Virus genome (UHGV): UHGV-0137934
DNA from: a virus
Strand: one strand, 5' to 3'
Length of the DNA: 53,703 nt
Shown here: one piece after another, positions 17,116-28,055 of the stretch
Layout: each line of letters opens with the position of its first letter
Numbering within the stretch: the first letter of the stretch is position 1
Translations under genes and position numbers: made by a program
Notes under the pieces: generated by a model
Told to the model about the DNA's origin: nothing
The model's database searches: none
Seen by the model: only the letters and a program-made list of their open reading frames with translations

Positions 17116-17493
17116 CTATTTTTTAAGTGCCTCGGCATAAGCTTGGGCGGTTTTTTGTGATGATTCCATGACATCATCAGCCAATGTTTGTTGGCCCCAC
17201 TTAGCCACTTTCCCGCTTACAAACGTAACAACTAGTCGATCATTAGCTAATTGTTCGTTATCGATAATAGTGTAGCCGTATAGAGACTTATTCCAATAAA
17301 TCCAGCGTTCGCGCTCTGGGTTAACATCAGTCCTTCTAGGCGATCCCATAATCTGCATAACATCGTTTTTGCTCATCCCAAGAGATAGAAGCATAGATTT
17401 CTGGTTGTAGTCGATTTTCTGGACTGTTGGGGCGCAGCCAGTAATTGTTAAAGCGGATGCGCCAAGTACTAAAGCGAAAATTAACTTTTTCAT
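17116..17493 (-). CDS. lipoprotein, BamE/SmpA-OmlA-like domain (moron inside tail operon)
   Basis: 125 aa; signal peptide with lipobox LTITGC; segment SLGMSKNDVMQIMGSP resembles BamE fold signature. Confidence 0.7.
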   Translation of the reverse strand: MKKLIFALVLGASALTITGCAPTVQKIDYNQKSMLLSLGMSKNDVMQIMGSPRRTDVNPERERWIYWNKSLYGYTIIDNEQLANDRLVVTFVSGKVAKWGQQTLADDVMESSQKTAQAYAEALKK

Positions 17494-17556: not shown

Positions 17557-17820
17557 TCAGTGCCAATTTTTCATGGCATCTTGAAGCGACAAAGGGGATT
17601 CATTGATATGGGGCGCAAAGTCACTGACCTTATAAGTAGGCGTGTTCTTCGCCTTATTGATGTTCGCCAGAACAGAAGCGACCATCGAGGCCCCCCACTC
17701 GGTTCGCATCATGTTGTTAAGCTGACCATACTTATTGCGGTACTTTACCCATATCTGAAACTCACGGAGGCTCATTCGCTCCTGAGCCTCCTCGATCGTT
17801 CTCCCGCCAATGCCGTTCAT
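17557..17820 (-). CDS. tail assembly protein (gpT-like region, own ATG)
   Basis: 87 aa ORF immediately after chaperone gene, different frame. Confidence 0.4.
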   Translation of the reverse strand: MNGIGGRTIEEAQERMSLREFQIWVKYRNKYGQLNNMMRTEWGASMVASVLANINKAKNTPTYKVSDFAPHINESPLSLQDAMKNWH

Positions 17821-17822
17821 GA

Positions 17823-18206
17823 CTAACTCACACCAGAACTCGTCTTCTCCTGTGAGTTCGTAGTCTTTCCCAGCTCGTTGACTCCCTGAATTACGGTCAG
17901 CAAGGCAATAACAATCGGGCCATCAAGTGCACCACGGTCTTCAGATGCAGTTCCGAGAATGTCCGCCTCGGTGAAGATTTGCTTGCCTTCCTCATCACAG
18001 ATATGGGCGGCAATACGCCCAGCCACCGGATCTGATTTGCCGTTATACGCCAGCAGTTCAGCTTTAGTGGTGTGGTAGCCCATAGGACGTACAAAGACGG
18101 TTGCAATATGTTCTTGCCCGTCACGACCTTTCCATTTGATTTCTTTCTCTACCGGGCGGCCAGTGAATGCCCCGGTTTCTTTTAACGTATCGAGAGTAAG
18201 CTGCAT
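17823..18206 (-). CDS. tail assembly chaperone (gpG-like)
   Basis: 127 aa acidic protein between tube and tape measure genes. Confidence 0.5.
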   Translation of the reverse strand: MQLTLDTLKETGAFTGRPVEKEIKWKGRDGQEHIATVFVRPMGYHTTKAELLAYNGKSDPVAGRIAAHICDEEGKQIFTEADILGTASEDRGALDGPIVIALLTVIQGVNELGKTTNSQEKTSSGVS

Positions 18207-26438: not shown

Positions 26439-26780
26439 TCATCTGAACCAGTGAGAATTTGGATCAAGCGGAATACCATTTTCATCGCAGCCGATAACGG
26501 TGCCGCGCTTCTCCATTCGCTGTTTCGTTGAGTCATGGTGCTGCTTACACAGCGCTTGCCAGTTCTTCCGGCTCCAGAAAAGCTTTTGCGCCTTCGCTAT
26601 TGCCTGGCTGTCACCAGAGCGTAGAGCCTCTTTCAGTTTGTGAGGGGTGATGTGGTCAACCACCGTTGCAGCTGTCACCCTGCCTTGCTCCTGGCACATG
26701 ACGCACAAGGGGTGCGCACGAAGGAAGATAAGACGCTCACGGTCCCATTTGCTGCCATAGATGCGGGGCTCTTTGTTCAT
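26439..26780 (-). CDS. HNH endonuclease (terminase-associated)
   Basis: 113 aa; Cys-rich HNH motifs (CVMCQ ... HHD); directly upstream of terminase genes. Confidence 0.8.
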   Translation of the reverse strand: MNKEPRIYGSKWDRERLIFLRAHPLCVMCQEQGRVTAATVVDHITPHKLKEALRSGDSQAIAKAQKLFWSRKNWQALCKQHHDSTKQRMEKRGTVIGCDENGIPLDPNSHWFR

Positions 26781-26896
26781 GCTCTCGTCCTAATGCTTGG
26801 ATGGGCGTACGATCCTCACCTGACCGAACAGCGCCGGGCGCTTAACCTCGCCGTTTTCGGCAGTGAGGTAACCACGGCTATCAAGCACAGCGGCAA

Positions 26897-27025
26897 TCAC
26901 CTCGCCTCTTTCATCGTCAGCAGAAAAGCGTGCTTTACATCAACGCCATTGAGATAAAACGTGTTATGTTCGCGACTGGATGCGATGCGTCCGCCCGGAT
27001 CGTCGTCGAGAACTATCAGGCGCAT
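26897..27025 (-). CDS. small ORF, 42 aa, possibly 5' part of a frameshifted gene
   Basis: ATG with strong GGAGG RBS; in-frame stop after 42 codons; a second frame continues to about 26786. Confidence 0.3.
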   Translation of the reverse strand: MRLIVLDDDPGGRIASSREHNTFYLNGVDVKHAFLLTMKEAR

Positions 27026-27080
27026 ATTTCCTCCAATAAAAAGCCCCGCTTGTGCGAGGCTATATCAATTATCGAAAAAA

Positions 27081-27314
27081 CTACCAGCCAACCTGTTTGA
27101 TTCCTTTGATAATCTCTTCATCACTTAGGTCGTATTGAAAACGAGCGATAAAATACTCACTACCCTGATAAGAAAATGTTTCAATCGGAATATCTATTTG
27201 GCCGTGGTTGCCTTTAGGGTCAACGCCATAACATTGGTAAACATTTAAGTTTTGTTCCAGTTTTATAATTTTAGGCTCAAGCCCAGGTAGCAATACTAAT
27301 ACTAATTTATACAT
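27081..27314 (-). CDS. hypothetical protein
   Basis: 77 aa ORF in AT-rich segment. Confidence 0.4.
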   Translation of the reverse strand: MYKLVLVLLPGLEPKIIKLEQNLNVYQCYGVDPKGNHGQIDIPIETFSYQGSEYFIARFQYDLSDEEIIKGIKQVGW

Positions 27315-27381
27315 TTTTATCTCCTCAGCTAACTCGAAGAGACATTATCACAGGCACTCAGTGAATGCCTGCTGTAATGCC

Positions 27382-27627
27382 TTAACTGGATTGTTCGGCG
27401 CTGGTATCGAAGAGCGGCAGCGCTTCAGTTGCTTCCTGTACTGCTTTCATCGTCTTTGCTACCACTTCGGTTTCTGTCGTGACGCGGCTGTATTGCTGGA
27501 TGAAAAGCTGATACTTAAGCGGGCTGTCCTGAACAAACTCTACAGCGACTTTTGCGGCGGCAGTGTCATAGTTCAGGGTTGAAAGCAGGTTCAGGCGAAT
27601 CTGCTGGGCGTCGGTGATTTCGGTCAT
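27382..27627 (-). CDS. hypothetical protein
   Basis: 81 aa ORF. Confidence 0.45.
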   Translation of the reverse strand: MTEITDAQQIRLNLLSTLNYDTAAAKVAVEFVQDSPLKYQLFIQQYSRVTTETEVVAKTMKAVQEATEALPLFDTSAEQSS

Positions 27628-27839
27628 GTCTTACCTCTAAGCGATGTGGGGAGCATTATCGAAGCCACTCGGCAGAATGGCTCCTGTAATGCCCGATCAG
27701 GCCTCGCTGGCCCGCTCAACCAAATCTTTGAAGTCCTGGCACATATGCAGTAGATGACCATGATCGTCGACAAAGTTGTAGCTTTTGAATAGTTCTACGA
27801 TTTCCTCGGGACTCTTCCCACTCAAACGAGGAAACCGTT

Positions 27840-28055
27840 TTGAATCGTCAACCTGTTTCATCTTCAAATCTCCATTCAGTTGGTTACGACCACGCCACTT
27901 CAACACTGGAAATTGCATTCCATAGCGGTGGCATTTATCAATACTCTCGGGTTCCATCTACCGTATACACAGCACTAATGAATGCGTCGTCAAAAGGCCA
28001 GTATTTTGATGCCCACATCAAAAAAGCTGGCTACGCTTACCGCAAAGTTGGGTGA
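27840..28055 (+). CDS. KTSC-domain protein
   Basis: 71 aa with TTG start and GAGGA RBS; VSSSNL.SVGYD ... TLEI.FHSGG.YQY..VP..VY..L motif. Confidence 0.55.
   Translation: MNRQPVSSSNLHSVGYDHATSTLEIAFHSGGIYQYSRVPSTVYTALMNASSKGQYFDAHIKKAGYAYRKVG

Follow-up and report, generated by a model that had tools for sequence, protein, structure and literature searches.

A small accessory phage gene, probably now a frameshift pseudogene, carried upstream of the HNH-terminase module in several Klebsiella prophage backgrounds

The locus lies in the late operon of an HK97-like prophage in UHGV virus genome UHGV-0137934, and the whole stretch of 53,703 nucleotides that was analysed is referred to here as the window. 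The late operon is ordered as holin and GH108 endolysin, a DUF2560 gene, a gene for a 77-amino-acid protein, the split gene, an HNH endonuclease gene, TerS (P27 family), TerL and portal. The coordinates of the split gene and its adjoining elements are collected in Table 1. A preliminary description of this DNA had reported a frame with a GGAGG ribosome-binding site and an ATG at 27025 that stops at 26897, and this was confirmed on the minus strand, the stop codon being the TGA at 26897-26899. The second frame noted there is also real and lies in the -1 frame relative to the first; however, it ends at the TAG at 26790-26792 and not at about 26786. The two mechanical open reading frames are referred to as ORF-A and ORF-B, and the stop of ORF-A overlaps the GTG of ORF-B (26898-26900) as GTGA (26897-26900), with GAGG located 4 nt upstream. 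The remainder of the ancestral gene, codons 35-78, is still an open frame, but it is no longer reached from the ATG at 27025. The hairpin over the ORF-A stop and the ORF-B start is the centroid structure of an 84-nt fold (-27 kcal/mol).

Table 1. The split gene and adjoining elements in the window
Feature	Position	Strand	Basis
Terminator-like hairpin: 8-bp stem, ACAA loop, then TTTTTATT tract	27042..27061	minus	hairpin scan
Shine-Dalgarno GGAGG, 4-nt spacer to ATG	27030..27034	minus	read from sequence
Start codon ATG	27023-27025	minus	sequence
ORF-A: 42 codons, being 34 native (M1-F34) and 8 out-of-frame (LLTMKEAR), then TGA	26897..27025	minus	
T4 run with one base missing versus intact relatives (frameshift lesion)	26924..26927	minus	DNA alignment
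Stranded codons 35-78 of the ancestral gene (SADDERGEVIAAVLDSRGYLTAENGEVKRPALFGQVRIVRPSKH) and TAG, -1 frame	26790..26924	minus	
ORF-B, mechanical ORF: GTG (ancestral Val43) to TAG, 36 aa	26790..26900	minus	
Allele-specific RNA hairpin over the ORF-A stop and ORF-B GTG	26865..26903	minus	RNA folding, z = -2.9
HNH endonuclease gene, downstream, first of the HNH-TerS-TerL packaging module	26439..26780	minus	

The GGAG of the Shine-Dalgarno sequence is invariant across a five-sequence DNA alignment. Immediately 5' of this ribosome-binding site, within the late operon, lies the terminator-like hairpin with its T-tract, and the same alignment places a hairpin at the equivalent position in the homologues with a differing stem sequence, which suggests that the hairpin may be a conserved element. 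The stem reads GCCTCGC/GCGGGGC in the window and CCACCC/GGGTGG in E. coli SX45. Elsewhere in the region, the plus strand carries a KTSC-domain ORF (PF13619, E = 4e-26) at 27840-28055, antisense to the late operon; it overlaps in part an 86-aa minus-strand ORF (27697-27957) situated between the lysis genes and DUF2560.

The window was aligned at the DNA level with four intact relatives: E. coli SX45, Escherichia phage vB_EcoS-733R5, and Klebsiella phages vB_VIPKPNMC05 and ST13-OXA48phi12.4. Exactly one gap was present in the window, and it falls inside the T-run at 26924-26927, where the window reads CAC GCT TTT CTG and intact relatives read CAC GTC TTT TCT, CAC GTT TTT TCT or CAC GCC TTC TCG. 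Fusing the two frames at the T-run yields a 78-aa protein (MRLIVLDDDPGGRIASSREHNTFYLNGVDVKHAF followed by SADDERGEVIAAVLDSRGYLTAENGEVKRPALFGQVRIVRPSKH) with full-length matches to 108 protein clusters, at E-values down to 7e-29 and a best identity of 76-77%. Because both the fused protein and the alignment place the missing base at the T-run, the frame is lost after codon 34; the preliminary description had put the shift after 42 codons, which is where the stop falls and not where the lesion itself lies. By these comparisons the pairing of ORF-A with ORF-B is not fortuitous.

A single uninterrupted ORF of 75-82 aa was found in 16 of 17 other related loci, which comprise four phage or E. coli records and 13 species-representative genomes. 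The one-ORF state is shared by the 108 protein clusters and by the 824 clusters described below. This is the comparison with homologous prophages that had been proposed as a check, and an intact single ORF was indeed recovered; homologues organised as two independent small genes were not found among these loci. One ORF of 77-78 aa is annotated at the same position in E. coli SX45, Escherichia phage vB_EcoS-733R5 and Klebsiella phage vB_VIPKPNMC05, and the equivalent intact ORF is present, although unannotated, in Klebsiella phage ST13-OXA48phi12.4. In the record of the latter phage (MK422450), a 118-aa ORF is annotated on the opposite strand (L002:2976-3332) across the intact copy (L002:3018-3254), and this is probably a mis-annotation. 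Twelve of the 13 species-representative genomes carrying a relative hold one uninterrupted ORF of 75-82 aa, and these genomes include Enterobacter, Atlantibacter, Citrobacter, Buttiauxella, Superficieibacter, Yokenella, Lelliottia, Cedecea and Pantoea. The homologue in the thirteenth, Ewingella, is disrupted in a different manner. In Ewingella americana (L031:1592-1882), the match to the family extends only to about residue 35, with unrelated sequence beyond, and this may represent an independent disruption near the same point of the gene.

A profile search of 1.84 billion cluster representatives returned 824 clusters (50% identity) at an E-value of 0.001 or less, and the members listed are nearly all stand-alone proteins of 70-100 aa. 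The family is thus a large stand-alone set of all-beta proteins of about 75 aa (intact loci L001-L004 and L019-L030; proteins P0001-P0259) with the consensus MRxSVxxxDPGY..VxLDGxE..TADEExGxV..DxxG..TLxGxVxI. No Pfam match was obtained for the protein of the split gene, nor consistently for 66 diverse members, and no solved structure matched the parent family. Weak matches were found to two PHROGs of unknown function, and the fold matches in BFVD were all uncharacterised phage proteins. A possible resemblance to DUF3297 was discarded, as no family member consistently matches DUF3297 or any other Pfam family. TRAP/MtrB (PF02081) was also considered; it shares a length of about 75 residues and an all-beta composition, together with an ungapped match in the same numbering over residues 27-73 that includes K40-G41-E42-V43-I44. 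However, the profile match to the PDB reached only E = 0.06, the hhalign probabilities were 7.7% and 17.6%, none of the 66 members matches PF02081, and the fold test did not support a TRAP-like fold.

The gene is usually encoded just upstream of terminase genes, and these belong to three unrelated types of packaging module. HNH, Terminase_4 and TerL genes lie downstream in the window, in L001-L018 and in L023; Terminase_2 and Terminase_6 genes lie downstream in L024 and L027; and DUF2280 and Terminase_3 genes lie downstream, with one gene between, in L029. A glycosyltransferase-like gene is found downstream instead in L021 and L022.

The frameshifted allele is not confined to the window. The exact 42-aa product of ORF-A is on record as a hypothetical protein of K. 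michiganensis (WP_260456443.1), and three variant products with the same out-of-frame tail are recorded from K. pneumoniae, K. oxytoca and metagenome assemblies. The 42-aa fragment (P0109) falls in a 90%-identity cluster whose representative is a 179-aa protein of the fungus Mycena leptocephala and which includes a 723-aa fungal member; these could come from a contaminated fungal assembly or from a clustering artefact. In NCBI, ENA and Logan assemblies, the same deletion was found on at least 61 contigs of three species (K. michiganensis, K. pneumoniae and K. oxytoca), and all four distinct DNA haplotypes carry the identical deletion. One locus (L005) matches the window at 100% identity across 6 kb. 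Pattern scans permitting both T4 and T5 recovered one IMG/VR viral contig and one JGI metagenome contig, each with only the 40-nt T4 pattern. A repaired or T5 copy was absent from the protein clusters, the exact look-ups and the DNA pattern scans allowing either run length, and an exact look-up of the repaired 78-aa sequence was likewise negative. An exact-pattern scan of species-representative genomes gave no match to the allele, and a protein-based scan of the same genomes gave the 13 loci described above, 12 of them intact relatives and none of this lineage. The protein-cluster search found no intact protein more than 77% identical, so the ancestral sequence of the T-run is a deduced one. 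On the evidence of these searches, the lesion is old enough to have become fixed in a lineage.

The allele also occurs in mosaic surroundings. It adjoins a TerL gene region that is only 77% identical in one locus (L015), and it adjoins unrelated lysis cassettes in three others (L008, L014 and L016). Between haplotypes, pS was 0.21-0.26 in the flanking HNH and DUF2560 genes versus 0.014-0.018 in the split gene and the 77-aa gene. Comparison of window positions 26439-27627 with L008, L014 and L016 indicates recombination breakpoints on both sides of the block formed by these two genes.

Selection on the two halves was assessed from segregating changes, which were counted after each of the four frameshifted haplotypes had been set in the ancestral frame. 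The split gene holds 8 non-synonymous and 2 synonymous changes, a sample of only 10 changes in four haplotypes, versus 25 non-synonymous and 61 synonymous changes in the DUF2560, HNH and TerS genes together (Fisher p = 0.003). As pN/pS is inflated when divergence is very recent, a further control was included; in TerS and TerL of only the three closest haplotypes, in which these genes are 98-99% identical, there were 5 non-synonymous and 40 synonymous changes (Fisher p = 4e-5 versus the split gene). The comparison with TerS alone (3 non-synonymous, 7 synonymous) was marginal (Fisher p = 0.07). The 77-aa neighbour, which lies in the same young, low-diversity block, holds 3 non-synonymous changes and 1 synonymous change. 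Pairwise pN/pS was 1.39 for the split gene versus 0.12-0.14 for its neighbours; the first half of the split gene showed 12 non-synonymous and 0 synonymous differences summed over six pairs, and the second half a pN/pS of 0.77.

The replacements fall at positions that are strongly conserved among 93 intact representatives: T4 (93/93) is changed to I or A, V23 (89/93) to F, I44 (92/93) to M, D49 (91/93) to Y and R63 (90/93) to H. In addition, E29D, I/Y21N and Q64P are found throughout the lineage and introduce residues that none of the 93 intact representatives has at those positions; only two or three of the 93 hold as many family-unique residues. Residues 35-42 are excluded from any product, and among them are G41 and E42, which are invariant, and A36, D37 and D38, which are nearly so (the ADD..GE motif). 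Taken together, these data show relaxed selection, with both halves seemingly having drifted neutrally since the lesion.

The preliminary description had offered a decaying gene, a programmed frameshift or two tiny ORFs as explanations, and the evidence above leaves only the first standing, a single small gene broken by a frameshift, on the grounds of relatives with one ORF, one missing base and relaxed selection. One competitor, itself improbable, is that both pieces are functional, ORF-A (42 aa) and ORF-B (36 aa) being either small genes in their own right or parts of a split protein that act separately or reassemble, with ORF-B being made by termination-reinitiation at the GTGA overlap. The TGA/GTG overlap with GAGG 4 nt upstream could permit such reinitiation, ORF-B is open in all four haplotypes, and one gene caller predicts a 35-aa product at ORF-B (L016 and L018). 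However, these elements are simply the coding sequence of a conserved G-E-V-I; the same nucleotides are unchanged in the intact relatives and encode G-E-V-I there, so that selection for coupling did not produce them and the overlap is incidental. Moreover, the ORF-B GTG is buried in the 26865-26903 hairpin, no relative is split in this manner, and near-invariant positions are replaced in both pieces, at a pN/pS of 0.77 or higher. The two pieces together would also lack residues 35-42, including A36, D37, D38, G41 and E42, so that the split removes the most conserved motif of the family.

A -1 slip on GC-U UUU-C would recover the ancestral HAFSADD junction and with it the whole 78-aa protein, whether as a programmed event or as translational correction of the deletion. 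The 0-frame codons GCT TTT CTG put a U_UUU tetramer in the right register for this slip, tRNA-Phe could re-pair perfectly with UUU one base back so that the ancestral reading is restored exactly, and a stable hairpin lies downstream of the T-run. Frameshift stimulators sit 5-9 nt downstream of the slip site, but this hairpin begins 20 nt past the T-run and not a few nt past it as in known stimulators, and it is not conserved, in that RNAalifold gave no consensus structure in 18 aligned homologues. No X_XXY_YYZ heptamer is present in the 40-nt overlap, counted from the last stop of the -1 frame to the TGA at 26897, and no Shine-Dalgarno-like sequence could be read upstream of the T-run. Two other slip sites read from the sequence, A_AAG (codon 31) and AAA_G (codon 39), were set aside, as neither restores the conserved junction and their spacing from the hairpin is wrong. 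In E. coli, a strong stimulator does act on U_UU.U, as on some other tetramers, but shifting at U_UU.U exceeds background only when a strong pseudoknot lies nearby, and bare Z_ZZ.N tetramers shift at about 0.15% versus a background of about 0.11% (PMC4066793); a bare tetramer such as U_UUU is thus expected to shift near background. The relatives, all of which are single-frame, need no shift, and both halves of the split gene evolve without constraint. A slip that yields the intact protein is consequently regarded as highly unlikely.

Two known systems help to place this reading. Like the lambda G/GT tail chaperone, the split gene has two overlapping frames in a late phage gene, the second at -1; unlike it, the split gene has only the bare U_UUU tetramer and relatives with one frame, whereas G/GT has the heptamer G_GGA_AAG and a two-frame layout conserved across phages. 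The same window holds this textbook site in frame at 17865-17871 (minus strand) in its tail-chaperone gene. There, a Phage_TAC_13 ORF (17823-18206) carries the lambda-type G_GGA_AAG, and its -1 frame is open into a Phage_tail_T ORF (17557-17820, minus strand); the segment 17557-18206 is predicted to be a canonical programmed -1 frameshift of the tail assembly chaperone. A 125-aa lipoprotein-like ORF with a MKKLIFALVLGASALTITGC lipobox (17116-17493, minus strand) and a BamE domain (PF04355, E = 1.5e-5) separates these G/GT genes from the tape-measure gene; inserts are unusual at this place, and the ORF may be a moron. The other system is the translational correction of indels by adventitious frameshifting (reviewed in PMC5009743), which resembles the split gene in that a deletion within a run leaves a slip-prone tetramer and a slip there restores the original protein. 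It differs in that tetramers lacking a stimulator act at about background, and the neutral evolution seen here argues against a useful amount of protein.

A phase-variable (contingency) switch, in which the T-run gains or loses a base at high frequency and so turns the gene on or off, has in its favour a homopolymer within the coding region at which a one-base change toggles the frame. Contingency tracts are typically 7 or more bases long, and the run of 4-5 T is far shorter; furthermore, every copy found of the lineage is in the OFF state, no ON allele was found in the clusters, look-ups or pattern scans, and the gene evolves neutrally. A switch is therefore given very little credence. It could also be supposed that the real gene is intact and that the missing base is a sequencing or assembly error, as a single-base deletion in a homopolymer is a typical error. 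However, a run of 4 bases is short, none of the collections searched contains a T5 version, and the same deletion recurs in independent NCBI, ENA, Logan, IMG/VR and JGI metagenome assemblies, in four haplotypes and three species. This independent recurrence refutes a read error.

Altogether, these data indicate that the locus is most probably a small accessory phage gene turned into an ordinary pseudogene by a frameshift, a reading to which we assign a probability of about 0.87; translational correction at background level, a functional split and a switch are, even jointly, unlikely. The ancestor would have been one gene of 78 codons that encoded a small all-beta phage protein, had its own GGAGG ribosome-binding site and lay after the lysis genes and before the HNH/terminase packaging genes. 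One T would then have been lost from the short T-run, most simply as GCT TTT TCT to GCT TTT CT. Replication slippage in a homopolymer typically produces a loss of this kind and is the presumed cause here. Ribosomes starting at the ATG at 27025 would now read 34 native and 8 wrong-frame codons before stopping at the TGA at 26897, leaving the remaining 44 codons stranded in the -1 frame, and recombination would have carried the broken lineage into several Klebsiella prophage backgrounds. The 42-aa peptide is presumably still made, but inactive, and a functional product is likely to be absent because residues 35-42 are lost.

Against this reading, the downstream frame is free of stops over its 44 codons and 85-90% identical to the intact relatives, and any decay would therefore be recent or incomplete. 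The sequence by itself would also be compatible with some residual use of the fragments. One such use, which we consider highly unlikely, would be that the broken gene is kept at a low dose, either by rare -1 slippage on U_UUU or by termination-reinitiation at GTGA that keeps ribosomes flowing to the HNH and terminase genes. If this were true, the fixed and widely recombined allele would represent a selected down-tuning of a protein encoded upstream of the terminase genes.

The biological importance of the locus is small. It resembles other frameshift pseudogenes of resident prophages in its single-base indel in a short homopolymer, its intact single-ORF orthologues, its relaxed selection and the annotation of its fragment as a tiny hypothetical protein; it departs from them in no essential respect. 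The allele is unusually widespread, has moved between prophage backgrounds by recombination and belongs to a sub-lineage of which no intact copy has been sampled. The frameshifted allele is common in prophages whose other genes look intact, and loss of the gene is thus at least tolerated. Because the broken allele persists and spreads, the protein may be dispensable for the prophages that carry it. Entries for the 42-aa hypothetical protein, such as WP_260456443.1, represent an N-terminal stump and would be better annotated as a pseudogene. A modestly useful by-product of this analysis is the family of the intact parent, which is large, is encoded just upstream of three types of terminase genes and has neither a Pfam model nor a solved fold.
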